A stretch of 51,750 nucleotides of DNA from an uncultured Planctomycetales bacterium. GTDB lineage: Bacteria > Omnitrophota > Gorgyraeia > Zapsychrales > Fredricksoniimonadaceae. Within the stretch, counting starts at the first letter, position 1. Every line of letters starts with the position of its first letter. The translations under genes were made by a program, and so were the position numbers. The notes beneath the pieces were generated by a model. That model was not told the origin of the DNA, searched no databases, and saw only the letters and a program-made list of their open reading frames with translations. Location of the stretch: the NCBI GenBank assembly GCA_964555945.1, contig CAZKUL010000002.1:1-51750 (forward strand), read 5' to 3'. Shown here piece by piece: positions 1-39,837 of this stretch.

Positions 1-62
1 AGTTCAACAATATCGCTGCGTTCAATGACCTGATTGATGACATCATTGGGGATCAATCCCAT
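1..62 (-). CDS. 5' end of a gene leaving the window; N-terminus resembles DNA primase DnaG
   Basis: Minus-strand ATG at 60-62 gives MGLIPNDVINQVIERSDIVE. This has the IP..I..V....DIVE pattern typical of DnaG N-termini. Only 20 codons are visible. Confidence 0.35.
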   Translation of the reverse strand, partial: MGLIPNDVINQVIERSDIVE

Positions 63-90
63 AACCAAATTTCTTTATGTTTAGTTATTT

Positions 91-157
91 GTCATCCCGG
101 CGAAGGCCGGGATCTTATTTCGAATTGTCACAAGATTCCGGCTTTCGCCGGAATGAC
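91..157. repeat. Family B palindromic repeat, inverted pair of hairpin units
   Basis: gtcatcccggcgaaggccgggatc (91-114) and gattccggctttcgccggaatgac (134-157). Each unit is a hairpin and the two are mutually inverted. Related units occur at 6721, 16096, 23365, 23828, 33459 and 39866. Confidence 0.8.
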
Positions 158-209
158 ATACTAAACTATAACTTTGTATTTATCCTGCGGCATTCGAGGA
201 TGAAGATAT

Positions 210-782
210 TTATTTATCTATAGGATGCAGTACTTGGGGGGCGGCCGCATTATAATGCTGACCCTCAAATAATTTATCAACGATATTCTTATATAAAAAA
301 CTGTAGGTACCCACTGCTGCGTGTCCGGCAATCTTAAAACTGTAAGAACGTAGGGTCATCCGTGTCAAAGGGCCATTGTGCGTCAAAAGGACCAAAAATA
401 AAGCCAGGCTGCAAACCAAAATACCCCGGCCCACAGCCACAATACCTGCCGCATACTTATTAAATCCAGGATGGTTCGTCTCCACTTTAAAAAGAATTAA
501 GATTCCGTCACTGATAAATTTAAAAGCAAGGGCGACGATAAACCAAAGGCCGGCAAACACACACAAGTCCCAATACTCCCAGGGACAATGGATTTTGCGC
601 GCGACCCATGCGGCACAGAAACTATAATAGTGAAGGCTGACAAAGACCGCTACTACAACACCCAGAGACTTAAAAAACTCTGAAATAAAACCGTTCTTGA
701 TCCCTACAAAAATCATCCGAACGAATAAAATCACTAGCGCTGCATCAATCCAGTTAATACTCTTAATGATATGTGTTAACAT
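210..782 (-). CDS. cvpA: CvpA-family membrane protein
   Basis: 190 aa with 4 hydrophobic segments. The N-terminus INWIDAALVILFV...GIKNGFISEFFKSLG matches the CvpA pattern (WID, GF..E). Confidence 0.75.
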   Translation of the reverse strand: MLTHIIKSINWIDAALVILFVRMIFVGIKNGFISEFFKSLGVVVAVFVSLHYYSFCAAWVARKIHCPWEYWDLCVFAGLWFIVALAFKFISDGILILFKVETNHPGFNKYAAGIVAVGRGILVCSLALFLVLLTHNGPLTRMTLRSYSFKIAGHAAVGTYSFLYKNIVDKLFEGQHYNAAAPQVLHPIDK

Positions 783-953
783 AATCTTAATCTACGATGC
801 AATGTTGAAGTATAACATGTGCCCCTAAGACTGTCAAGGAACCGCTTGCCCCTTGCTTGTAACGTAAATGACTGATAATGATTCGCTTATGCACCAAATC
901 AAAGTATATTTGGCCTTATTTATAATGAAAAAACCTGAGGATAATCCGTGATC

Positions 954-3900
954 CTAAACCGCGGCAGGGGCAGGCATTGCACGCTCAATCGGCACGGGGA
1001 CCTGGGGACTTTGAGGTTTATACTCATTGAATTTCACAGATACAATGCGTGATACACCCCGCTCCTGCATGGTGACCCCATACATGATATCAGCGGCATT
1101 CATGGTATTTTTATTGTGCGTAATGACGATAAACTGGGCAATTTTAGCAAATTCTTTGAGCATCCCCGCAAAACGCCCCACATTAGACTCATCCAAGGCT
1201 GCATCAATCTCATCCAGGACGCAGAAAGGACTGGGATTGACTTTAAAGACTCCAAAAATAAGCGCAATGGCGGTCAATGTCTTTTCACCACCGGACATAA
1301 GACTGATATTTTGTAATTTCTTGCCCGGTGGCCTGGCCACAATATCAATGCCGCTTTCCAGCGCGTTTTCCGGGTCAAGCAAAACCAATTGGGCTTCCCC
1401 TCCGCCAAAGAGCATACGGAAATAAACTTTAAATTCTTCATTGACCTTAACAAAGGTATCCGTAAACATCTGCCGGGTGGTCCTGTTGATTTTTTGAATC
1501 GTAGAGAGCAACTGCTCGCGGGCGGTCAACAAATCACTTTGCTGCTTGGTCAAGAATTCATACCTGCCTTTGAGTTCTGCGAATTCTTCAATAGCCACAA
1601 AATTAACAGCACCATAAGACTCACAGCGTTTTTTGAGTTTTTCGATTTCTAGAGTGAGTTCGTCGATGCTGAGTTGGGGGAGTTGCTCGGCAGTGGGTTG
1701 GGAAGCTTGCTCGGCAGTCGGGGTTCCCTCGGTTGCTTCTTGTTTCGCGGACGGTGGTTCCACTGGGGTGCTTTCACATTCAATACTACCTTGCTCGGCA
1801 ACCTGCTCGGGGACACGACTAAAGTCATGTCCCCTGGTTGGCAAAGCTTCAGCTTGCGTGGTTGAAAGCTCTCGCACTGGTTCATTCTGGATTTGGTCCC
1901 AGTCGATTTTGTAGGCTTGGAGCAGGCGTTCTTTGAGGGTGCGTTGGTTGAATTGGACTTCCTGCTGGCGCATCTGCTGATGGTGCATTTGGGTTTTGAT
2001 ACGGATGATCTCATCTTCAATGCCCCTGATCCCATTACGCAGGGAATTGAGACGGCGGGACATTTCTTCCTTTTTGGCTGACTCTTCATTGAGGACGACG
2101 CTTAAAGCCTCTTTCTTGCGCTGTAACCCTTCAATCGCCGCCTGCAGAAGGACAATATCTTCGCTGACCTTGATTTTCCTGGCGGCCAATTCCCGGTTCT
2201 CCAATTCGAAACGGTTGATGTCCGTCAAATCTCGATCAAGATTCTGGGTATGTAAGGCCAAATTGTCCTCAAAGCCTTTACGCTTATCGGATAACGAAGA
2301 TAACTCTGTTTCCAATTGGGCCACGGCGATATTCAATTCCTGACGTTCATGGTCCTTGGATGCAATGGCCTCATGTTTGAACTTAATATCTTCCTGGCAT
2401 CGCGTAATTTGGCTCCCCAAGCCTTGCAAACCTATGGATAATTCTGTTTCTTGTATTTTTAAGGACGCGATGGTCGACTCGGCTTCAGCAAATTCAGAGG
2501 TGATGACATCCAATTCTCCCACGAGCTTTCCGGAAACCAATTCAATATCATTTTTCTGGGATTCCAACACGGAGAATTTCTTTTCTTGGTCCTGGATATT
2601 CTTAAGGACATCCTCAACTCCGTTGCCCTGCTCTTGAATCTGCTGGCTAAGCTGGCTTTTTAATTCGAGGGCCTGGGCTAGTTTTCCATCGATCGTGGCT
2701 ATGCGATCATCCAAATACTGCAAATCCAACTCCACATATTTGGTCTCATAGATAATTTCAAAAATTTCCGAAGAATTCTGATAGGTCTCATTCTCACCAT
2801 CCGGCACGCATTCAAAGCCATTGGGCCTTTTGACTTTGACTTCCTTGATCTTGCCGATAATGCCCGTTTGCTTCTCCGTCGGACAGACGGTCGCGGTAAA
2901 ACGCCCTTCAACAACCGGGTCAGGGATGTCCTGGTATTGGACCTGCATTTTCTGGATAAATTCTTTTTGGGACAATAGAAAGACATGGTTCTTTTCCAGG
3001 TCATCAATGGTGGCTTCCTGGACGGCAAAACGGCTTTTTAATTCTTCAAGGGCATGGCGGCGGGTATTGCAATCAGCCCAACAGGCTTCCAATTGGGCTT
3101 GCACTTGGGCAATCGCCTGGCTTAGCGCTTCGCTGCGTTGATAAACCTGCACCTTTTCATCATTGATCTTGGAATTTTCATGCTCCAGACGGGCCTTGCG
3201 TGCCTGGGCTTCCATGGTCCGTTTCATATTCTCGGTCAATTGGTTCTTGAAACGCACCTGCTGGCCATTGAGGCCTAAAATTTCACGCTCCACCTGCTCA
3301 ATGGAAGATTTAGATTGCTCTATAGCGTGCACCAGAACACTTAAATCCTTTTTCTTCTGCTCCAGGCCGGCTTGTAAGGCTGATAAATTCTGAGCCAGAC
3401 GCGACAGGGCTTCCTTGATCTCTTCAATCCTGGCTTGATGGGTGCTGCAACGCCCCAGAGCTGCGGCCTTGTCTGCCTCCAGACGCTGGCAAGTCTCATC
3501 CATGCTTTGCAAGCGCTCTTCATTAAAGGCAATCTGGCGGGTATTCATCGCCACTTCATTTTCTAAATGAATGTCCTGGGCTTTTAATTCATTAATGCGC
3601 TCATCGATCTCTTCTAATTGGAGGGCCTCATTGTCAATGCGGTTATTGAGGTCTTCCAGTTGCTTGGTCAAATCAAGTTCCTGGGTTTGTAAGGCCCTGA
3701 CAGCAGCGGCCATCTCTTCACTCTCATTGATGTAACGGGACATCTGATGGCGCGCAAAGGTCAATTCATAACCTTTGAGGACCTCAAACTCTTCCTTGTA
3801 GCGCTGGGCCTTTTTGGCCTGGCGTTCGATCGTGGCGATCTGGCGCTTGACCTCAACGACAATATCGTTGATCCGCAATAAATTATCTTCCGTGTCCTTA

Positions 3901-4442
3901 AGTTTGCTTAAAGCTTCTTTCTTTTTGCTTTTATATTTGGTAATACCGGCGGCTTCATCGAAAATCTGGCGGCGGTCATCCGGCTTGGCGGAAACAACCA
4001 GGTCTACCTTGCCTTGCTGGATGAGCGAATAGGCCTCGGCGCCAACGCCGGTGCCTAAAAAAAGCTCCACAATGTCTTTTAAGCGTGAGGTATTTTTATT
4101 GATCAAATATTCGCTTTCACCGGAACGGAAAAGGCGGCGCGTGACAATGACTTCATCATGATCGAGCGGTAAAATACGTGATTCGTTGGAAAAAGTGAGG
4201 CTGACTTCCGCAAAGCCTAATGGGGCTTTCTGGTCGGTGCCATTGAAGATGACATCTTCCATGGAGGACCCGCGCAACTCCTTGACGCTTTGCTCGCCTA
4301 AAACCCAGCGGATGGCATCAAAGACATTACTTTTACCGCAGCCATTAGGCCCTACGATAGCAGAAATGCCCGGTTGGAACTCCAACACGGTCTTCTGGGC
4401 AAAGGACTTGAACCCGAATATTTCTAAACGCCTAAAATACAT
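954..4442 (-). CDS. smc: Chromosome segregation protein SMC
   Basis: 1162 aa. Walker A is GPNGCGKSN. Long coiled coils flank a hinge. The signature LSGGEK and Walker B FCVLDEIDAALD lie at the C-terminus. Confidence 0.97.
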   Translation of the reverse strand: MYFRRLEIFGFKSFAQKTVLEFQPGISAIVGPNGCGKSNVFDAIRWVLGEQSVKELRGSSMEDVIFNGTDQKAPLGFAEVSLTFSNESRILPLDHDEVIVTRRLFRSGESEYLINKNTSRLKDIVELFLGTGVGAEAYSLIQQGKVDLVVSAKPDDRRQIFDEAAGITKYKSKKKEALSKLKDTEDNLLRINDIVVEVKRQIATIERQAKKAQRYKEEFEVLKGYELTFARHQMSRYINESEEMAAAVRALQTQELDLTKQLEDLNNRIDNEALQLEEIDERINELKAQDIHLENEVAMNTRQIAFNEERLQSMDETCQRLEADKAAALGRCSTHQARIEEIKEALSRLAQNLSALQAGLEQKKKDLSVLVHAIEQSKSSIEQVEREILGLNGQQVRFKNQLTENMKRTMEAQARKARLEHENSKINDEKVQVYQRSEALSQAIAQVQAQLEACWADCNTRRHALEELKSRFAVQEATIDDLEKNHVFLLSQKEFIQKMQVQYQDIPDPVVEGRFTATVCPTEKQTGIIGKIKEVKVKRPNGFECVPDGENETYQNSSEIFEIIYETKYVELDLQYLDDRIATIDGKLAQALELKSQLSQQIQEQGNGVEDVLKNIQDQEKKFSVLESQKNDIELVSGKLVGELDVITSEFAEAESTIASLKIQETELSIGLQGLGSQITRCQEDIKFKHEAIASKDHERQELNIAVAQLETELSSLSDKRKGFEDNLALHTQNLDRDLTDINRFELENRELAARKIKVSEDIVLLQAAIEGLQRKKEALSVVLNEESAKKEEMSRRLNSLRNGIRGIEDEIIRIKTQMHHQQMRQQEVQFNQRTLKERLLQAYKIDWDQIQNEPVRELSTTQAEALPTRGHDFSRVPEQVAEQGSIECESTPVEPPSAKQEATEGTPTAEQASQPTAEQLPQLSIDELTLEIEKLKKRCESYGAVNFVAIEEFAELKGRYEFLTKQQSDLLTAREQLLSTIQKINRTTRQMFTDTFVKVNEEFKVYFRMLFGGGEAQLVLLDPENALESGIDIVARPPGKKLQNISLMSGGEKTLTAIALIFGVFKVNPSPFCVLDEIDAALDESNVGRFAGMLKEFAKIAQFIVITHNKNTMNAADIMYGVTMQERGVSRIVSVKFNEYKPQSPQVPVPIERAMPAPAAV
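1809..1843. repeat. Hairpin repeat unit (PTRGH type) embedded in frame in smc
   Basis: ggggacacgactaaagtcatgtcccctggttggca. The same ends (ggggacacg...catgtcccctggttggca) recur at 7088-7136. It translates as LPTRGH inside a low-complexity SMC insertion. Confidence 0.7.
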
Positions 4443-4515
4443 ATTATCACTTTATAACATTTAACAGGGGTGTCAACGGAGAATTAATCTTTTTTCGACG
4501 GCATAAAATAGTGGT

Positions 4516-7500
4516 TTATCCAGATACGTGATTAATCCCAAGGAATTGCCGTAAATTCATTGGATGCATGTTGATAATCACCGCCGTGAATCCTGGGGCA
4601 TTTCGTAATTCTGCCAGCATGGCGGGATTAATGTGAAATCTTATGCTTCCTTTCTCATTTCCTCCACCTTCTCTTTTAGTTTCCACATCCATACGCGCAG
4701 GTGTCAAATCGATACCGCCGGGAGTTAAGTCACTATGGTGCATGGCTCTGTCCCCCATAACGTCACGATACAGCGTCTCCAATGTGGGGTCCTCATTCAA
4801 ATGATAAAATCTATTCTTTTCCCATGCTTGGGCACCTGCAAAGGCCTTTACCATTTTTTCCATTTCTTCTATCTCTCTTTGCATTTCTAAATATTCCCTA
4901 GATATTTGCTTATCCTTCAGTTCAAGACGTAACTCCTTTATTTCATGAAGCAGCACCCTCATCTCTTCAGGAGTTTGTATGACAGGAATCTTTTGAGGAA
5001 CGACCGGATGTGGTAGTCGCACCGGTGTATTTAAATCCTCCAAACTTTCAATACCCCTGATTAAAATATTAAAGTCCTTGGGATTTCTACCTGCAAACGC
5101 TGGCTCTTTCATTAGGACATTCTCTACCAACATTTCTGGTAAATGCAAAGCAAGATTTCCATGATGGACATAAATGATCATAGGTTTTTTAAATGCATCG
5201 TTATCGTCCTCATAATGGACTTTCAACACCTCACCTAAATTCCTGTAGAGCTCCGCTGTGATCATCGGTTGTGGTAAGAATACGGCATAACCCGGCCCCC
5301 ATGGCCTGACAGTCATCGTTTCAGGCGGTTCAGCAATCGCGAGGTGCATTTTATTCCAACTGTCTCTTTCATAAATAACGCCACCGGAGCCGACCGAAGC
5401 ATCATTCATCGCTGCATCACTTGCTTTCACCTCGTGACCATTTTTTAGTGCTGAATACATTGCTGGATCCAGCTTCAACAAATCATTCGCCACTCCAACA
5501 ATCTGGCGAATTTCTTGAACAGTAAAAATTGGTTCTTCGGAACGAAAATTCCATTCTTCCAATTGTTCCTGCAATAAGGTATCCGAAATATAGCCATCAA
5601 AATAATGTTTAAAAACAAATTCAAGATTTAATTTTTCTAATCTGTCTCCAAATCGAGCCAACATATAACTGATTTTTCGTTGAACCGCTTGTTCTTTAGA
5701 TAATCCAGAGAAACTAATCATTTTTAATTGTTCAACAAATCTATCCACCTCATCCTCAAACGCATAACTAAATTTACCAACAGATGCGTCATAAGAGAGG
5801 CCATTTCTAGGCACACCTATCTCACGGTACTCTGCCATTGTTCTTGCTTGATTGACTCCTCCATCATAAATGTAATCCAAAACTGCTGATCTCAAAATAA
5901 ATGGCACACTAATTAAGGTCGGCATTTGTTTAACCTTTTCAAAAAAGTCTCTCCCATTTAATCCATGTGGAAAATGTAAATCAGAAACTATAAGGTCAAT
6001 CCTTAAATTTCCTTCAGCAAACTTTTTTAAAGCAGCCTCACATGTTTCGAACGAAATTACATGGAATCCTTTACGTTCCAATATTTTCGTTGCTTTGCTT
6101 ATTTCTTTCGGATCATCATCAACTACAATAGCTATGGGGGCATCTGCTTTTAAAGATCCTATTGATGTCCTCATTGCTGCGTCAATAGAGAACTGGCCAT
6201 CATTTTTAGAAACATTACTTGTCAATTGTGCATTGTCAGGAAGCGGATTAGATGATTTAGTGCGACCATAATGAATTCTTGTATCAACCTCTTCGATTAG
6301 TTGTCTGAGTGTAGGTCGGTCGCGATTTGTTTGTATTTTAAGAAGTTCCGATTCTTCACTTATCACTCTTTTAGCCATGCTAACAGCGTATCTAGGCGGG
6401 ATCCCTGAATATCCTCCCTCTTCTGCCCAGGTCTTAAATCTCGCCAAAAGATTACTGTCAGTACTCATCGCTGCATTACTTACATCTGTGGTTATTCGCA
6501 TATTTACCTGGACCATGGCAGGGTTACCAGCGGGGGCATGGTTGGTTTCAACCTGAAACTCCGTCCCCATAGCCAAATCGGTTCCGCCGGAGAAGTATTT
6601 TCTGGGGATGGGTTGCTGGCTTAAGGGATCAACATCTTCCTTGATATAGTTGTAGGCGCCTTTTTTGAAGGCTTGGAGATAGCGTTGGTAGATGAGTTGG
6701 ACTTCGTTGTTTAAATCTTTGTCATTCTGAGCCGAAGGCGAAGAATCTAAAGGTGTCTTAAGATTCTTCGCTGCGCTCAGGATGACGGGATACTTTGGGA
6801 TGACGGAATTTTCATATTGTATTCCCACCACCTTCTTCTTATCTTCATAAACCATCGCCAGGATGCTGTCTTTGATTTTCTTCTTGTACCACGTGGCCAA
6901 AATCAGGGAATTGTAGACTTGACGCAATTGGGTGAAATTCTGGCCTTCGTTGACTTCTTTGGTGAGTTCGGGGATGACGATTGCGCGGACGACTTGGGAG
7001 CCTAAAGCGTTTATGTCTTTGGTTGACGTATGGGGGTTTACCTGGGATGCTTTCGCATTCAACAGTAGTTGGGTTGGCAACGTGCTTGGGGACACGTACC
7101 CCCGCCATGGCGGGGGAACATGTCCCCTGGTTGGCATCACATCGCGAAGGTCTTTCCCCATTGCCAAATAATCCTGTTCCAGCATGACTTTTAATTTGCT
7201 TTCTACCACATAGGCTGTCCCTGCCTTCGCATTCTCATAAACTACGGCTTTTTCGGGAATAATCCAGACCTTATTAAAGGTATTTACAGGAATATTGGTG
7301 GTCCCAAATTGTTGGGCGGCCTGTGCGTAGATGCGTTTCCAGAATTTCTTTCCTGTTTCTCCTTCGGGATAGATTAAGCTGGCGGTGATTTGCTTAAGCA
7401 TATAGTCCTCGGCAAGCAGATCGCGTCCCATTTCTGTGAAGCCGAAGCTGCGGGGAATGATGCGATTGCGTTCGTAAGGACTCAAATTGACCCAGAGGTC

Positions 7501-7830
7501 ATTTTCCGGGATGGTTAAAGAGGCAAGGAAGTATTTGATTAATTTTGTAGATTCTTTACGTAGAGACGCAAAATTTTGCGTCTCTACATCTCCTTTATCT
7601 AGAATAAAATCGAATCTAAATGGGTTCTCGGGATGGACTTTGATGCCTTTAAGAATTGGAGGGTTAAACGGGAGACTTAGGGGCACCATGACCCCGGGCG
7701 TGGGCAAAAAGAATTCATGAGCTTGGGCCGACGGTAAGGGACCAATGGTATTGATAAAAAATACCAATAAAAGAAAAAAGGCATGCTTTGGCCTTAAAAA
7801 AAGGCCACGCAAGAAAGTATTTGAAGGCAT
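4516..7830 (-). CDS. Large exported modular protein of unknown function (paralog A), with an internal receiver-like domain
   Basis: The ORF-track start at 7866 is GTG. The ATG at 7830 gives the signal peptide MPSNTFLRGLFLRPKHAFFLLLVFFINTIGPLPSAQA. The N-terminal ~330 aa are colinear with 13168..15486. Other features are the segment PIAIVVDDD...LIVSDLHFP, recurrent D/N-A/P-A-M motifs and a C-terminal GGIDL module. Confidence 0.85.
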   Translation of the reverse strand: MPSNTFLRGLFLRPKHAFFLLLVFFINTIGPLPSAQAHEFFLPTPGVMVPLSLPFNPPILKGIKVHPENPFRFDFILDKGDVETQNFASLRKESTKLIKYFLASLTIPENDLWVNLSPYERNRIIPRSFGFTEMGRDLLAEDYMLKQITASLIYPEGETGKKFWKRIYAQAAQQFGTTNIPVNTFNKVWIIPEKAVVYENAKAGTAYVVESKLKVMLEQDYLAMGKDLRDVMPTRGHVPPPWRGYVSPSTLPTQLLLNAKASQVNPHTSTKDINALGSQVVRAIVIPELTKEVNEGQNFTQLRQVYNSLILATWYKKKIKDSILAMVYEDKKKVVGIQYENSVIPKYPVILSAAKNLKTPLDSSPSAQNDKDLNNEVQLIYQRYLQAFKKGAYNYIKEDVDPLSQQPIPRKYFSGGTDLAMGTEFQVETNHAPAGNPAMVQVNMRITTDVSNAAMSTDSNLLARFKTWAEEGGYSGIPPRYAVSMAKRVISEESELLKIQTNRDRPTLRQLIEEVDTRIHYGRTKSSNPLPDNAQLTSNVSKNDGQFSIDAAMRTSIGSLKADAPIAIVVDDDPKEISKATKILERKGFHVISFETCEAALKKFAEGNLRIDLIVSDLHFPHGLNGRDFFEKVKQMPTLISVPFILRSAVLDYIYDGGVNQARTMAEYREIGVPRNGLSYDASVGKFSYAFEDEVDRFVEQLKMISFSGLSKEQAVQRKISYMLARFGDRLEKLNLEFVFKHYFDGYISDTLLQEQLEEWNFRSEEPIFTVQEIRQIVGVANDLLKLDPAMYSALKNGHEVKASDAAMNDASVGSGGVIYERDSWNKMHLAIAEPPETMTVRPWGPGYAVFLPQPMITAELYRNLGEVLKVHYEDDNDAFKKPMIIYVHHGNLALHLPEMLVENVLMKEPAFAGRNPKDFNILIRGIESLEDLNTPVRLPHPVVPQKIPVIQTPEEMRVLLHEIKELRLELKDKQISREYLEMQREIEEMEKMVKAFAGAQAWEKNRFYHLNEDPTLETLYRDVMGDRAMHHSDLTPGGIDLTPARMDVETKREGGGNEKGSIRFHINPAMLAELRNAPGFTAVIINMHPMNLRQFLGINHVSG
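6721..6804. repeat. Family B palindromic repeat inserted in frame in paralog A
   Basis: gtcattctgagccgaaggcgaagaatc (6721-6747) and gattcttcgctgcgctcaggatgac (6762-6786), plus a partial third unit. It encodes VIPKYPVILSAAKNLKTPLDSSPSAQND, a segment absent from paralog B at the aligned position. Confidence 0.8.
7088..7136. repeat. Hairpin repeat unit (PTRGH type) inserted in frame in paralog A
   Basis: ggggacacgtacccccgccatggcgggggaacatgtcccctggttggca, with the nested 18-nt perfect palindrome cccccgccatggcggggg. It encodes MPTRGHVPPPWRGYVSP, absent from paralog B. Confidence 0.75.
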
Positions 7831-7872
7831 ACGGGAAGTATAACACGTATATTTATAGACAACCACCAGGGG

Positions 7873-7901
7873 AAGAGAATTCTTATGGAAAGAGAATTCT
7901 T
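7873..7901. promoter_or_regulatory. Direct repeat of a 12-nt palindrome-containing box, AAGAGAATTCTT x2
   Basis: Identical 12-mers at 7873-7884 and 7890-7901. They sit between the GH1 stop (7908) and the paralog A start. Each contains the palindrome AGAATTCT. Confidence 0.35.
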
Positions 7902-7907
7902 CCAGGG

Positions 7908-9128
7908 CTAAACTTCTAGAATGCCTGTTTTGCAGACTTGAGCAAATTTGGTGGCACTATCTCTGACAGTTCTCTGGTAGGTCTTGAAATCAATATCAAT
8001 CAACCCAAATCGCGGCTTAAAGCCCTCTGCCCATTCGAAGTTGTCCATCAAGGACCAGTACAGGTATCCTGTGACATTGACACCCTGGTCCATGGCCAGG
8101 CGCACATTCTTGAGATGGCTTTGGATGTATTCCCAACGCTCGTTATCATCACTGGTACAAATGCCATTCTCAGCGACGATCACCGGCAATTTGTATTTCT
8201 TTAGTTCCAAGAGGACCTGGGACAGCCCTTGCGGATAAATGTCCCAGCCCAGGCCATTTTTCTTGCACGGATGATGGTTATCACTGCATTTTTCCATCAG
8301 CAAATTGCCAATCCACCAGCTATGCACATCCACCAGGTGCCTGGAATAATAATTAAGTCCGATGAAGTCAAGGGTCCTATAATGGGCCAAATGATCGAGG
8401 ACCGCAAAATTATAGATCTGCTTTCTCATGGCGACGGCCAATCGGTTGCGCAGGCGCTTGTCACAACCCACAATGGCCTGCATATGCTGGGCGATGCTGA
8501 CAGCAGGTTTATCTACCTTCAACTCTTTATAAATTCGATGGATCATCCGGTAGGCCTCGATATGGGCTTCATTCAAATTGTGATAGACGGCCTTGGTCTG
8601 AAGGATGGATTTTTTCTGCGGCGGCCACATGCCCCATAGAAAAGAATGAGAAAAATAAACAGTAGGTTCGTTGATGGTAAACCAAAAATGGACGCCGCGG
8701 GCCAGGGCACGGGTGACAAATTCACCATAACGCAAAAAGCGCTTCATGCTCCGTGCGTCACTCCAGCCACCAGAGTCAGCAAACCACTGGGGGTTGGTGA
8801 AATGGTGTAGAGTCACCATCGGTTCAATCCCACGCGTGCGCAGGGCCCTGATCACATTAATATAATGGACAATGGCTTCATCTGAAAATTCTCCCTCGCG
8901 GGGCTCGATACGGCTCCATTCGATGGAAAGGCGGTGGGCATTGTGGTTCAAACTTTTGACCAGGTCAAAATCCTGCTCAAAAAGCTCGTAATGGCGGCAG
9001 GCCGGGCCAGAGTTTTCATGGCCGGTCTTCTTCTCCCAGGCCCACCAATCCGCGTTGAGATTATTTCCTTCCACCTGATAGGAGGATGTCGCGGCGCCCC
9101 AGTAAAATTCTTTTGGAAATTGGATCAT
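7908..9128 (-). CDS. Glycoside hydrolase family 1 (beta-glucosidase-like)
   Basis: 406 aa. The N-terminus is FPKEFYWGAATSSYQVEGN. The acid/base motif is TINEP and the nucleophile motif is VAENG. Confidence 0.93.
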   Translation of the reverse strand: MIQFPKEFYWGAATSSYQVEGNNLNADWWAWEKKTGHENSGPACRHYELFEQDFDLVKSLNHNAHRLSIEWSRIEPREGEFSDEAIVHYINVIRALRTRGIEPMVTLHHFTNPQWFADSGGWSDARSMKRFLRYGEFVTRALARGVHFWFTINEPTVYFSHSFLWGMWPPQKKSILQTKAVYHNLNEAHIEAYRMIHRIYKELKVDKPAVSIAQHMQAIVGCDKRLRNRLAVAMRKQIYNFAVLDHLAHYRTLDFIGLNYYSRHLVDVHSWWIGNLLMEKCSDNHHPCKKNGLGWDIYPQGLSQVLLELKKYKLPVIVAENGICTSDDNERWEYIQSHLKNVRLAMDQGVNVTGYLYWSLMDNFEWAEGFKPRFGLIDIDFKTYQRTVRDSATKFAQVCKTGILEV

Positions 9129-13167: not shown

Positions 13168-15486
13168 TTAAGCTGGCTGGGCCTGAGATTCCACTCTCAG
13201 ATTCTTAAAAATAGATAAATTTGTCGCTGGTTGGATCTCCCAAATATGTGGCTCCAAGCCTTGGACGTTCATCATGGCTGGGTCTTGATTAGACAAGGGC
13301 AACGGCACGCCAGAACCATCCCGTCTTAACTTAAAACCCATTGGATCAAAGTCGATACCACCCCGGATCTCTGGTATCGCGACTATTTGTCTTTTAGTGA
13401 AAGTGACAGGGTTTGCGATCTCAGCCAAGTCATTATCTCTAACCTCATTTTGCTTTACTTGGACCATTGCCGCATCCACTATTCTTACCTTTATTGTTAG
13501 GCTGCCATTGGAGGACATGAGGTATTCGATTACGTAATCTCCACCCGTTAAGGCACTTGTCACAAGAGTTTTAACTCCCTCAATCTCATCTTCACGTATG
13601 TTTGGCATTTGAATTAAATGAATCTGTTCCACAATATAATGATCCACTCTTCCACGGAACCTGCCCTTTAAATCTTTTACTAATTTTCCAATAGTATTTT
13701 CTTGGCCGCTCTTTTTTTCACTAGCATGACGCGCCTCGGCTTCTAATAACGCCAACTTTCGTCTAATTTGTTCATCAGCCCTCACTCTTTTATATATCTG
13801 CAGAGCTATTTTAACATCAAGATCCTCCTGTAATATAAGAAAAACCGACCCCACAAATACTGCTGCCAATGCCCAAATGGGGAATGCCATGAACCCGAAT
13901 TCAGGCCAACTCATTTTGTAAGAATTATCATGGAGATTATCGTAGAATTGATGAACCGTATGTGAGGAAGATGCAGCCCCAACCGCAAAAAGCATCATTG
14001 CAGCGACCAATTTTCTAAATGCTCCCATTGCAGCGTCAATCTTCTTATCAAAAACCATAATTAACAGCCCATCTTGCAATGTATAACTTCGCAGACCGCT
14101 TCCTGTAAAATGAACGATCAAACCCAAGAAAGAACCTAGCCGTCGCATGGCTTTTGAGCTTAACTTTGGCAACCTTACAGTAACTCTATTGTTATTAATG
14201 CTCATGCCATCCACAATTTTATCTAATACTCTAAGATAAGCTTTTGTATCAGGCTTTCTCAACACTACAGAATTAAACCCAATGCCTGTCATGGCCGCAT
14301 TACTATTTAAGCCTGTAGCAGCAATAACAGCCTGTGCGGCATCCAACCGTGAAACTGTTTTGTAATCAAACTTTGCAGCCGCTTGCGCTGGGTTGGCTTC
14401 CTCTAATACAGATGCCATGGCCAAATTGGAGAATCCTCCGGAAAAATACTTCCGCGGAATCATTTGACCCGTAATAGGATCTTGGTCTTCTTTAATAAAA
14501 TTATACACACCCTTTCTAAACGCTTTTACATATTGCTGATAAACCTCTTGCTGGTCCTGCTCTGGATCAGCCAAATTAACGCCTTGCACCTTGTTCTTAT
14601 TAGCATACACCTGCGTTAAAATACTTTTCTTTAAAGCTTGTTTGTACCAAGTTGCCAAAATCATCCCATGAAACATTTGCCGTAAATTCGCAAAATTTTC
14701 GCCCTCATTGACTTCCTTGGTTAATGCAGGAATGACAATTTCTAGCATCATATTTTTTGCAATATCCTGAGGATTTTGATATTGGATTCCCGATTTCGCA
14801 AAATTAACACTAATTGTATTTTGTTTCTCATGATTCTTTTCTGTAGCTAAGTAATCTTTTTCCAGCTGAACTTTCAATTTACTTTCAACAATTAAGACTG
14901 TTCTATCTTTTTCATATACGGAAGCTTTATCCGGAGTTATCCATACTTTATTGAAAGTATTTATGGGTATATTGGTTGTTCCATACTTATGGGAAGCTTC
15001 AGTATAGATTTTATTCCAGAATTCTTTGCCGATTGCATTCTCAGGATATAGCAAGGATGAAGTGAGCTGTTTTAGCATATAATCTTGCGCCAAAAGATCA
15101 CGGCCCATTTCCGTTTTACCAAAATTTATATCAATAATGCGATTCTTTTCATAGGGAGAAAGATTGACCCATTGCTTATCCTCGGCTATTGTCATCGCGG
15201 CTAAGAAATATTTGATCAATTTCTCATACAATTCTTTCTTTTGATCCGTTGCAATTGGTCTGTCACCACGATCAATTAGAAAGGTAAAAGCAAAAGGATT
15301 TCTAACATCAATGGTCATGCCCCGAATGATCGCAGGGGTAAATTTAGGACTTAAATTTACCATTGTTCCAGGCGTAGGCATAAAAGACAATACTCCGTTA
15401 GCTTGAGATTGGGGTAGATATAAGGAAGACCCAACAAAGGCAGCAATGAGAATAATATGAATGATTTTAAAATTATGGGGTTTCAT
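13168..15486 (-). CDS. Large exported/membrane modular protein of unknown function (paralog B)
   Basis: 772 aa with a signal peptide. The N-terminal ~330 aa are colinear with paralog A (NLSPYE.NRII, TEMGRDLLA.DYMLKQ, NTFNKVWI, IPRKYFSGG). It has central hydrophobic segments, recurrent DAAM motifs and a C-terminal GGIDF module. Confidence 0.85.
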   Translation of the reverse strand: MKPHNFKIIHIILIAAFVGSSLYLPQSQANGVLSFMPTPGTMVNLSPKFTPAIIRGMTIDVRNPFAFTFLIDRGDRPIATDQKKELYEKLIKYFLAAMTIAEDKQWVNLSPYEKNRIIDINFGKTEMGRDLLAQDYMLKQLTSSLLYPENAIGKEFWNKIYTEASHKYGTTNIPINTFNKVWITPDKASVYEKDRTVLIVESKLKVQLEKDYLATEKNHEKQNTISVNFAKSGIQYQNPQDIAKNMMLEIVIPALTKEVNEGENFANLRQMFHGMILATWYKQALKKSILTQVYANKNKVQGVNLADPEQDQQEVYQQYVKAFRKGVYNFIKEDQDPITGQMIPRKYFSGGFSNLAMASVLEEANPAQAAAKFDYKTVSRLDAAQAVIAATGLNSNAAMTGIGFNSVVLRKPDTKAYLRVLDKIVDGMSINNNRVTVRLPKLSSKAMRRLGSFLGLIVHFTGSGLRSYTLQDGLLIMVFDKKIDAAMGAFRKLVAAMMLFAVGAASSSHTVHQFYDNLHDNSYKMSWPEFGFMAFPIWALAAVFVGSVFLILQEDLDVKIALQIYKRVRADEQIRRKLALLEAEARHASEKKSGQENTIGKLVKDLKGRFRGRVDHYIVEQIHLIQMPNIREDEIEGVKTLVTSALTGGDYVIEYLMSSNGSLTIKVRIVDAAMVQVKQNEVRDNDLAEIANPVTFTKRQIVAIPEIRGGIDFDPMGFKLRRDGSGVPLPLSNQDPAMMNVQGLEPHIWEIQPATNLSIFKNLRVESQAQPA

Positions 15487-16095: not shown

Positions 16096-16179
16096 GATCC
16101 TTCGGAGCATCTGCGAGCTCCTGCGAGTGTCCGGTTCGAGGACCGAATGTCCGGCATGAGGACCTTCGCTCAGGATGAC
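16096..16179. repeat. Family B repeat, long variant
   Basis: gatccttcgg...ctgcgagtgtccggttcgaggacc...cttcgctcaggatgac. It shares the ctgcgagtgtccgg core with 23828 and 33490. Confidence 0.75.
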
Positions 16180-23827: not shown

Positions 23828-23881
23828 GATTCCGAACTCCTGCGAGTGTCCGGTATGAGGACCCGCTTTCGCGGGAATGAC
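23828..23881. repeat. Family B repeat, long variant
   Basis: gattccgaactcctgcgagtgtccggtatgaggacccgctttcgcgggaatgac. Confidence 0.75.
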
Positions 23882-28194: not shown

Positions 28195-28217
28195 AAGTAT
28201 TGCTTTCCAAGTTGGGC

Positions 28218-28275
28218 GTAGGGGCGGACCTTGTGTCGGCTTATTCCTTCGGGCGGACACAAGGTCCGCCCCTAC
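28218..28275. repeat. Family A GC-rich hairpin repeat, inverted pair
   Basis: A perfect 20-nt inverted repeat, gtaggggcggaccttgtgtc / gacacaaggtccgcccctac, separated by 18 nt. The unit gggcggac-acaag-gtccgccc is itself a hairpin. Confidence 0.85.
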
Positions 28276-28299
28276 GAAAATCTTATGTATCGAGTAGAC

Positions 28300-32370: not shown

Positions 32371-32433
32371 CGTAGGGGCTAGGCCCTTCCATCGGGCGGA
32401 CACAAGGTCCGCCCCTACGCAAAATTGGTGTGA
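32371..32433. repeat. Family A GC-rich hairpin repeat
   Basis: cgtaggggctaggccc...gggcggacacaaggtccgcccctacgcaaaattggtgtga. Confidence 0.85.
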
Positions 32434-32439
32434 TATGAC

Positions 32440-33201
32440 TTATGGATTAATGGTCATATTGTTGATGACATTGGTCACACCGTTGATATCATTGGCGACC
32501 TTGGTGGCCATGTCTTTGCCAGCCCCGTTGATGGCATTGCCGCTGAGGGTGACGATCCCATTGTTTGTCTCAACGCCGGTCTTAAAGGCACTGGTCGAGT
32601 GGTGCGTCAGGAAAGCCATCTTGACCTGGGCGGTGATGGAGGCATCATCGATCTTATTGTCTTTGTTCTGATCGGATTTATCAGCATTTTCCACGATGGT
32701 CATTTGGTTATCGATACCTTTAATACCATCGATGTCTTTGGCATATTCACCGGTCAGGTCTTTTTGGGCCTGGCTGTCAGCGTGGCCCTTTAAGGTGGCA
32801 ATCCCGTCGGTAACATAAACTTCGGTATTCACAGCGCTCACATTGCGATTGAATAACAGGGCCCCTTTGACCTTCATGCTGAGCCATCCATCGGAATTCT
32901 CAGGCGGCTGTTGGCCGGAGATGGTCAGCTGATTATCGACACTTTTGACCCCGGGCAAACTGGCCACGGTCTCTTGGGCCAATGATTTATGGGACTCTTC
33001 ACTGACTGTGCCCGTCAAGGTCACCACGCCGTCATTAGAGGATGTGTTGATGGCATCATCTTTAAGGTATGTCCTAAAGACATAGGAGTCCTTGGCCGAT
33101 GATTGGATGCGGTCATCGGTCTGGGAGGCGCGTACGGACACGCTGGAGAATAAAAGGCCGAACATGACTGCTAGAAAGACTTTTGAGTAATTTGTGTTCA
33201 T
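32440..33201 (-). CDS. OsmY-like periplasmic protein with three BON domains
   Basis: The start was moved to the ATG at 33201 (AAGGA SD, signal peptide MNTNYSKVFLAVMFGLLFSSVSVRA). There are three V/I-TL.G......K.....A....GV..V.N.(L/M)TI repeats. Confidence 0.85.
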   Translation of the reverse strand: MNTNYSKVFLAVMFGLLFSSVSVRASQTDDRIQSSAKDSYVFRTYLKDDAINTSSNDGVVTLTGTVSEESHKSLAQETVASLPGVKSVDNQLTISGQQPPENSDGWLSMKVKGALLFNRNVSAVNTEVYVTDGIATLKGHADSQAQKDLTGEYAKDIDGIKGIDNQMTIVENADKSDQNKDNKIDDASITAQVKMAFLTHHSTSAFKTGVETNNGIVTLSGNAINGAGKDMATKVANDINGVTNVINNMTINP

Positions 33202-33458: not shown

Positions 33459-33543
33459 GTCATCCCGACGAAAGTCGGGATCTTTTAAAGATTCCGGCGA
33501 GCAACTGCGAGTGTCGGTCAATACGAGCTTCCGCCGGAATGAC
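33459..33543. repeat. Family B repeat, unit plus long variant
   Basis: gtcatcccgacgaaagtcgggatc (33459-33482) and gattccggcgagcaactgcgagtgtcgg...ccgccggaatgac (33490-33543). Confidence 0.8.
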
Positions 33544-39047: not shown

Positions 39048-39063
39048 ATCAACCTCCTGATTC

Positions 39064-39147
39064 GGGCGGACACAAGGCCCGCCCCTACACGCATGTTCCC
39101 TTAATCGGGTGGACACGAGGTCCGCCCATACGCACAATTGGTGTCAC
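39064..39147. repeat. Family A GC-rich hairpin repeat, two direct units
   Basis: gggcggacacaaggcccgcccctacacgc ... gggtggacacgaggtccgcccatacgcacaattggtgtcac. It abuts the stop codon of the upstream gene. Confidence 0.85.
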
Positions 39148-39837
39148 TTAATTTACGTCCCGTCCCATGTATACCGTTCGTGGAGCTACTACAGTGTCCT
39201 TGGGGACGATGGCGCCGGCGGCGATGATGGCGTGGTCTCCAATCTCGACACCCGGCATGATAACGGAATTAAGACCTATGACAGCATTGGCCCCAATCTT
39301 CACTTTTTTGAGCTTGAGTCCCCGGCGTTCAAAGAGATGGCAGATGACCGTCGCATTGCCACCGATGACGGTGTTTTCCCCTATTTCCAATAGGGAGAGA
39401 TCTGCCACATTCTTCGAATTAATTTGCACGTTAGCCCCGAGTTTGGCCCCCATCATCCGATAAAACAAGTTGGAAAAAGGCGTCAAGAGCATAAAATCCA
39501 TAAAAAAAGCTTTCACGGCCTGGACCAGGGCATTTAAAAAGAACCACTTGAACAGTTCCGCATCTTTAAAAATGAAATTTCCTTCTTTAAGACGCAAATT
39601 CAAGACCATGTTCAATAAACCAACCAGCAATAACAATGTAAGGCCAAAAAGAAAAAAGCCCCCGGCAATACCAAATCCTAAGATCAGGGCCCGGGGGAAA
39701 AGGCCCCAAGCCTGTGTCATGGACAGTACATTCAAGAATAACGCCAGCACGGGTGCGAGCGCCAGGCCCACCACCAAAGCCCCCAGAAAATATAAGAATA
39801 TAACGATAATTCCCTGCACCATGGCTCTTCCCATCAA
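39148..39837 (-). CDS. Membrane-anchored left-handed beta-helix (hexapeptide) acyltransferase
   Basis: 229 aa. N-terminal TM segments are followed by hexapeptide repeats (IGENTVIGGNATV, IGANAVIGLNSVI, IGDHAIIAAGAIV). Confidence 0.75.
   Translation of the reverse strand: MMGRAMVQGIIVIFLYFLGALVVGLALAPVLALFLNVLSMTQAWGLFPRALILGFGIAGGFFLFGLTLLLLVGLLNMVLNLRLKEGNFIFKDAELFKWFFLNALVQAVKAFFMDFMLLTPFSNLFYRMMGAKLGANVQINSKNVADLSLLEIGENTVIGGNATVICHLFERRGLKLKKVKIGANAVIGLNSVIMPGVEIGDHAIIAAGAIVPKDTVVAPRTVYMGRDVN

Follow-up and report, generated by a model that had tools for sequence, protein, structure and literature searches.

How copies of DNA hairpin repeats can lie within protein-coding genes, the essential chromosome-organising gene smc among them, with the reading frames of these genes remaining open, is the question raised by the stretch of DNA analysed here, a window of 51,750 nucleotides from an uncultured member of the Omnitrophota. 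The window belongs to contig C2 of a 2.88-Mb metagenome assembly (G000) that comprises 281 contigs and has a G+C content of 45%. Two neighbouring genes are concerned: smc (954–4442, minus strand), which encodes 1162 amino acids (aa) without stop codons and matches TIGR02168 (E = 1e-261) and PF02463, and the gene for an exported head-domain protein with a receiver domain, here called paralog A (4516–7866, minus strand), the open reading frame (ORF) of which is intact. An earlier note, made from the sequence alone, described three segments, one in smc (1809–1843) and two in paralog A (6721–6804 and 7088–7136), as in-frame copies of intergenic repeat families and likened them to the Rickettsia palindromic elements (RPEs). 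The present analysis indicates that they are probably non-autonomous hairpin repeats of the RPE or intragenic repetitive extragenic palindrome (REP) kind, which lie at permissive loops and linkers within intact genes and are translated as part of the host proteins.

The coordinates, peptides and open frames of the three segments were borne out by the translations, which contain ALPTRGHDFS, VMPTRGHVPPPWRGYVSP and VIPKYPVILSAAKNLKTPLDSSPSAQND, the frames of smc and of paralog A both being open. The sole Pfam match in paralog A is Response_reg (residues 580–657), and its N-terminal head domain recurs in about 70 paralogs, found by tblastn in this genome, which form a secreted family. The segment at 6721–6804 belongs to a repeat family termed family B, whereas the other two proved to be parts of a single longer element.

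Extent and architecture of the element

The segments at 7088–7136 and 1809–1843 share an exact 17-mer, for which only 0.19 occurrences would be expected in the window with three mismatches allowed, and extension of the genomic matches to this 17-mer revealed that both segments correspond to the hairpin portion of a single element of about 90–105 nt (hereafter the ~100-nt element). They had been recognized rightly as real repeat copies but were drawn too narrowly, the true boundaries being 7037–7138 and 1758–1846. The copy in paralog A (7037–7138, minus strand; about 102 nt; nhmmer E = 4e-24, covariance model E = 7.5e-24) lies in the second of three head loops, has a GC-hairpin type of loop and encodes MPTRGHVPPPWRGYVSPSTLPTQLLLNAKASQVN, and the copy in smc (1758–1846, minus strand; about 89 nt; nhmmer E = 2.8e-18, covariance model E = 3.3e-21) lies in a linker, is of the short-loop type and encodes ALPTRGHDFSRVPEQVAEQGSIECESTPVEP.

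On the coding strand the element has GCCAACC at its 5' end and consists, in order, of GCCAACCA, the hairpin GGGGACAUGU-loop-ACGUGUCCCC, AAGCAGGCUGCCAAGC followed by about 10 nt, and the tail UGAAUGUGAAAGCACCCCAGGGAAAC. In an alignment of 21 copies the 10-bp stem GGGGACAUGU/ACGUGUCCCC is invariant, with U·G as its eighth pair in all 21, and the conservation of the tail is as strong as that of the stem. The U·G pair exists on the sense strand only; the opposite strand would give a C·A mismatch. In paralog A the extended hairpin (7088–7127, minus strand) combines the 10-bp conserved stem with a 7-bp GC stem, and the 114-nt stretch around it (7031–7144) folds with −47.5 kcal/mol (z −3.9). The hairpin of the smc copy (1809–1834, minus strand) reads GGGGACAUGAC-uuua-GUCGUGUCCCC on the sense strand and includes the U·G pair; the 101-nt stretch around it (1752–1852) gives −37.9 kcal/mol with a z-score of −3.9 on the sense strand and a z-score of −2.2 on the antisense strand.

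The loop types are interchangeable. One is an AT-rich loop of 20 nt; a second, seen in paralog A, is a GC mini-hairpin by which the stem is extended; a third, on contig C65, is a tetraloop that caps a stem 3 bp longer; and the short form, in which the loop has 4 nt and the inner stem differs, is found in smc, in one copy within the gene for an E2 acyltransferase and in one spacer copy. By manual count, the stem halves lie 26, 26, 23, 17, 29 and 35 nt apart, all 2 modulo 3, with 12 nt in the short type, and the differences between the loop length classes are mostly multiples of 3. In the ~100-nt element, CCA precedes the stem, and its foot bears neither a GTAG nor a CGTC tag. An Rfam scan of positions 1–9000 gave three matches, all far below the gathering scores and none meaningful.

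Two copies of the element (C6:34341–34486 and C124:2024–2169) contain a nested repeat, GAGCACCTGCGAGTGTCCGGTATGAGGACC, which is read as CEHLRVSGMRT and occurs three more times in the window (16114–16144, 23833–23863 and 33498–33528).

Copies, host genes and reading frames

A search with nhmmer found 26 genomic copies of the element, 88–134 nt in length, of which 22 (85%) lie inside ORFs of more than 350 aa, and all 22 host frames are open. The description of the segments as copies of intergenic families therefore suits family B, which is mainly intergenic (74 of 95 units lie outside ORFs of at least 300 aa), but not the ~100-nt element, which has no intergenic copy in the window. Head-domain paralogs host 17 of the 22 in-ORF copies here and about 41 of the 47 in-gene copies in relatives. 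Outside this family, the E2 acyltransferase gene carries two copies, each in the linker that follows one of its two lipoyl domains, and other copies are situated at the 5' edge of a gene for a NodT-type outer-membrane lipoprotein and just upstream of the gene for trigger factor (tig); four copies nearly fill short spacers between co-directional genes. The element is a composite cassette with an exchangeable loop that resides mainly in three loops of the head family, where it is scattered over the paralog tree, and occasionally in unrelated flexible linkers and in spacers between co-directional genes.

The earlier note had asked for the frame bias of the intragenic copies, and several frames were found rather than one. 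The same DNA is read as QPGDMF..TCPQAGCQ, PTRGHV..VSPSTLPS or ADQGTC, depending on the copy, and the tail gives LNVKAPQGN, ECESTPVE or ECESTPGK. Most paralogs have the reading QPGDMFKSELQRTCPQAGCQ..PLNVKAPQGN, paralog A and many copies in relatives have PTRGHV..(N/Y)VSPSTLPS..LN.KA.QG, and smc and the E2 gene have LPTRGHDFSRVP...ECESTPVEP, such that each sub-segment of the element is used in every frame without a stop. The copies in the second frame have lost the TAA of the consensus, which is the outcome expected from selection for an open frame and hence from translation. Because different copies are read in different open frames, the unit is DNA or RNA and not a peptide; a module at the peptide level was considered and rejected on this ground.

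Insertion sites in the head-domain family

Paralog B (13168–15486, minus strand; row C2_14377 in the head alignments) carries none of the inserts and served as the empty-site reference. Both paralog A segments are absent from paralog B and from most of the 50 paralog heads aligned, in keeping with the earlier claim that they are true insertions. In this alignment the loop after EDYLxLxK holds the element in 14 paralogs, and two other loops hold it in C20 and C65; even at one shared loop the element is read in different frames. In other paralogs the three loops carry other hairpin families, for example family B, VIPAKAGI-, SPNVLIGDP- and RHPERSEGS-type repeats and a recurrent GVGSKPTQERAGYEPAPT insert.

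In a head-domain tree built with the loops left out, the presence of the element in head loop 2 requires no fewer than five changes if well-supported branches alone are counted, and 11 in the best tree. In the well-supported clade of six to which paralog A belongs, the element is found in paralog A only, its five closest paralogs being without it. A single ancestral insertion in the head family was rejected, as the tree forces at least five changes.

The earlier note had proposed modelling of the structures to see whether the insertions fall in surface loops, and an AlphaFold model of the paralog A head (mean predicted local distance difference test score, pLDDT, of 61; 80–90 in the core) places both inserts in predicted coil. 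Residues 204–237, encoded by the element, fall within the coil segment 200–242, and residues 315–342, encoded by family B, fall within the coil segment 303–346; both segments lie between helices and have pLDDT values below 50.

Once inserted, the element decays through in-frame deletions between short direct repeats. The scar MPTRG|N in C65 corresponds to an exact deletion between the terminal direct repeats CC(A/C)GGGGA (CCAGGGGA)..CCAGGGAA, and in C37 a micro-homology deletion has removed the hairpin.

A separate insert, YKNNVGVGSKPTQERAGYEPAPT, is present nearly unchanged in head loop 2 of about 11 paralogs on different branches of the tree (for example, C8:29020–30081 and C85:9793–10929) and, as judged at the protein level, is probably another repeat family.

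The smc insertion across the genus

Alignment of smc with its orthologs (77–82% identity), proposed in the earlier note as a means of dating the insertion, showed that it is common to six species of the genus and eroded in others. The insertion site lies just upstream of the stretch that aligns with the Bacillus subtilis SMC head constructs 3ZGX and 5XG3, in the linker between KIDWDQIQNE and LSIDEL..EIE.LKKR, the length of which is variable in all 28 orthologs spanning it. The stem is recognizable in all six carrier species, with point changes in three, and their loops range from 4 to 16 nt. The five other species with the insert are represented by separate assemblies, in which smc is intact (about 1130–1170 aa). 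In the SMC tree the six carriers are scattered through the whole clade of the genus and their sister lineages keep remnants only; in one instance just the tail is left, as would follow from a deletion between two TGCCA(A/G) repeats. Most simply read, the pattern reflects a single old insertion that was then eroded repeatedly.

The copy now present in this genome has a further history. Its identity is 87% with a copy in the E2 gene of the same genome (C49:16293), 81% with a spacer copy and no more than 72% with the orthologous smc copies, which have a signature of their own in common; since it is closer to the E2 copy of its own genome than to its orthologs, the resident copy is, to judge from these identities, one that was converted or replaced within this lineage. 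Downstream of the element, at 1683–1716 (minus strand), the linker holds two more copies of the central 10-mer of the element, TGCCGAGCAA, which encode PTAEQASQPTAEQ. The 10-mer occurs three times within 1683–1800 as against 0.16 times expected in the whole window, and a part of the 65-aa linker has apparently arisen through local duplication of the element's sequence; Tandem Repeats Finder, run with a tandem-repeat origin of the linker in mind, found nothing.

Orientation, distribution and candidate enzymes

In all 26 copies in this genome, spacer copies included, the element is sense with respect to the host or flanking genes. The same holds for 35 of 35 matches in an examination of 30 loci, 28 of them from relatives (about 33 new copies), and for 54 of 54 copies in 40 further 20-kb loci from relatives, although paralogs and kin genomes do not supply independent copies, and these counts overstate the number of independent events, which is estimated at roughly a dozen to twenty. 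Stop codons alone are insufficient to account for the bias, because one frame is open in the antisense consensus too, and because the non-coding copies obey it. Among contigs of 10 kb or longer, about 91% of coding bases are on a single strand per contig, and neighbouring long ORFs are encoded on the same strand in 89% of cases. All 26 copies are on the majority strand, and biases linked to transcription and to replication are therefore confounded in this genome; the GC skew at third codon positions is near zero and hence uninformative on the replication strand. In relatives, three copies in minority-strand genes are still sense, and all three hosts are head-family paralogs, the orientation of which may have been inherited with the host gene.

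By covariance model the element was detected in 16 of 24 further genomes from the same taxonomic family, in none of 16 genomes from the other families of the order and in none of 148 genomes from the other families of the phylum.

The genome contains five Y1 (HUH) transposase genes, two of which are flanked by other hairpin families. The gene at C13:8135–8720, which resembles REP-associated tyrosine transposases (RAYTs), is flanked on both sides by GTAGGGGC(C/G)GACCTTGTGTC(G/C)GCCC hairpins, and the gene on C22 is flanked by GAGACGCCAT hairpins; both look like classic REP/RAYT arrangements for other repeat families. REPs of the GTAGGGGC type are also found at several gene ends in the window (28212–28299, 32391–32442 and 39061–39155).

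Origin and spread of the element

The reading favoured here, that of non-autonomous hairpin repeats in permissive sites of intact genes, would make the nucleic acid the thing that is copied or conserved and the peptide a passenger. The element would have spread among the paralogs by duplication, gene conversion or re-insertion, and copying would act on one strand, for which a HUH/Y1 (RAYT-like) transposase acting on the single-stranded hairpin, or a process linked to transcription, are candidates. Several observations weigh against this reading. About 85% of the in-gene copies lie in one gene family, and because of this concentration and the low copy number, recombination among paralogs could explain most of the spread without transposition. 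The GGGGACATGT hairpin of the element stands beside none of the five Y1 genes in a genome that is 94% complete. Neither terminal inverted repeats, as judged from the alignment of 21 copies, nor a variable target-site duplication is present, the terminal direct repeat CCAGGGRA being identical in all copies and part of the element itself. The head model is of modest overall quality, and the evidence that the inserts would be read through as disordered peptide consists of the open frames.

These points bear most directly on the possibility that the element is a native segment of a hypervariable loop, shuffled among the roughly 70 head paralogs by gene conversion, with the copies in smc, the E2 gene and the spacers arising from rare ectopic recombination. 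The preponderance of head-domain hosts both here and in relatives, the constant sense orientation, the small number of copies per genome and the lack of any transposase link, terminal inverted repeats or target-site duplication would all be accommodated by such an origin, as would the three minority-strand hosts, which are all head paralogs and could have brought the orientation with the gene. However, the element occupies three different head loops as well as unrelated genes and non-coding spacers, its frames differ even at one loop, and several unrelated hairpin families occur in those same loops, which points to permissive sites colonized by repeats; the native-segment origin is accordingly judged unlikely. 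It is also rather doubtful, a shade more so, that the element is a sense-strand-specific mobile hairpin, the copying of which is tied to transcription or to one DNA strand, and that the lineage uses or tolerates the cassette as a loop-diversifying module of a secreted head-cargo-tail family of about 70 members. If this were true, the hot-spot loops would be a built-in site of rapid surface variation and more than junk-tolerant linkers.

The strictly sense orientation, which extends to every spacer copy between co-directional genes, would also be expected if the hairpin were a selected sense-strand RNA or single-stranded DNA signal in mRNA processing, mRNA stability or translation pausing, with the peptide as a tolerated by-product. 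The sense-strand U·G pair in 21 of 21 copies, the stronger fold z-score on the sense strand, the retention of the stem at the smc site in six species with varying loops and the conservation of the tail to the level of the stem are in line with such a role. Nevertheless, the stem is invariant and shows almost no covariation, with a compensatory change in only one of ten pairs; most smc orthologs have lost the element or keep it in eroded form, and most paralogs do not have it, with no consequence to be seen; Rfam has no family that matches the region; and the hosts share nothing but flexible linkers, all of which makes a selected signal improbable. That the segments are assembly artefacts or marks of interrupted pseudogenes, as might be feared in a metagenome assembly of 281 contigs with repeats prone to misassembly, is scarcely credible given 22 open host frames out of 22, the insertion in an intact smc in five independently assembled species and the location of the copies in relatives within long open frames.

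Relation to known repeat systems

Hairpin repeats that reside in the coding sequence of functional genes are known, and the repeats of this genome are a fresh example, from the Omnitrophota, of protein-coding palindromic repeats. The RPE families RPE-1 to RPE-10 (Ogata et al. 2000, 2002, summarised in PMC10969869) are in-frame hairpin repeats within functional genes, and are described as encoding a conserved peptide (PMC10969869). The likeness proposed in the earlier note is upheld by copies that are recognizable at the nucleotide level, lie in intact frames and are absent from many paralogs and orthologs. RPEs and the ~100-nt element are alike dispersed hairpin repeats of about 100–150 bp that occur in frame in unrelated functional genes, at sites where the fold can accommodate an additional loop; each is restricted to its lineage, and neither has its own transposase gene. 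The defining features of the RPE class that are seen in the ~100-nt element are thus the dispersed hairpin repeat, its in-frame presence in unrelated intact genes and its tolerant sites. The RPEs, which were compared by their description, belong to an unrelated phylum and are in all likelihood unrelated in sequence. Moreover, the ~100-nt element is read in every open frame rather than as one conserved peptide in a single frame, most of its copies lie in three loops of one expanded gene family, all of its copies are sense, the non-coding ones included, and the loop of its hairpin is an exchangeable module. Common descent with RPE-1 to RPE-10 is very unlikely, because the element is found in one family of Omnitrophota only.

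Intragenic REPs with GTAG or CGTC tags are most numerous in Opitutus terrae and R. conorii, and many lie in replication and repair genes, with flexible linkers or loops suggested as their location (PMC3733652; Di Nocera et al. 2013). Such REPs are short palindromes, often inverted dimers, that are mostly intergenic, with a minority in genes including DNA-maintenance genes, and both family B and the GTAGAGACGC hairpin at 7560–7587 (see below) behave in this way. In contrast, the ~100-nt element lacks the GTAG/CGTC foot tag, is three to four times longer, has a conserved unpaired tail and is 85% intragenic.

REP doublets forming hairpins (REPINs) are extragenic. The ~100-nt element resembles the REP/RAYT (REPIN) system and the single-strand model of IS200/IS605 in its strand-specific G·T(U) pair, its uniform orientation and the presence of Y1 (HUH) genes in the genome, but it is not predominantly extragenic and none of the five Y1 genes is flanked by GGGGACATGT. 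MITEs (miniature transposable elements with inverted repeats) that form in-frame fusions (ERIC, BOX, Nezha and others) are reviewed in PMC10969869; these too are small non-autonomous repeats that lie within ORFs and add peptide segments, but unlike them the ~100-nt element is without terminal inverted repeats or a variable target-site duplication.

A full-text literature search combining Omnitrophota with palindromic repeats found no paper that describes such repeats. The present case adds free-living, uncultivated Omnitrophota to Rickettsia and the few other bacteria in which protein-coding palindromic repeats are known, and offers a clean case for study, in which every open frame is used, an insertion in an essential gene can be traced through a genus from intact to eroded, and copies are exchanged within a genome. 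In practical terms, the inserts both inflate and distort protein alignments and annotations in Omnitrophota genomes.

Family B and GTAG-tagged hairpins in paralog A

The segment at 6721–6804 (minus strand), in head loop 3 of paralog A, encodes VIPKYPVILSAAKNLKTPLDSSPSAQND and is an inverted pair of family B (GTCATYCTGAGC..GAAGRATC), as the earlier note had stated, with units at 6721–6747 (plus strand) and 6762–6786 (minus strand); an incomplete third unit can now be added. It folds with −35 to −44 kcal/mol (z −6.4 to −7.5), and most of the paralogs aligned have no comparable insert in this loop. Genome-wide, ORFs of 300 aa or more, which make up 67% of the genome, contain 21 of the 95 family B units, the other 74 lying outside them. 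Family B is a REP-like unit of 25–27 nt, usually present as inverted pairs, that is mostly intergenic with an intragenic minority.

A fourth intragenic hairpin, which the earlier note did not report, is the GTAG-tagged perfect palindrome GTAGAGACGCAAAATTTTGCGTCTCTAC in head loop 1 of paralog A (7560–7587, minus strand), which encodes VETQNFASL. It stands in place of a DKGD loop and leaves the loop only one residue longer. The genome contains 54 such hairpins, and the same hairpin family also flanks the Y1 transposase gene on contig C22.

At 91–160 in the window lies an intergenic inverted pair, GTCATCCCGGCGAAGGCCGGGATC ... GATTCCGGCTTTCGCCGGAATGAC, which gives only weak, sub-threshold matches to Rfam small RNAs and, going by its letters, looks like a sister family of family B.

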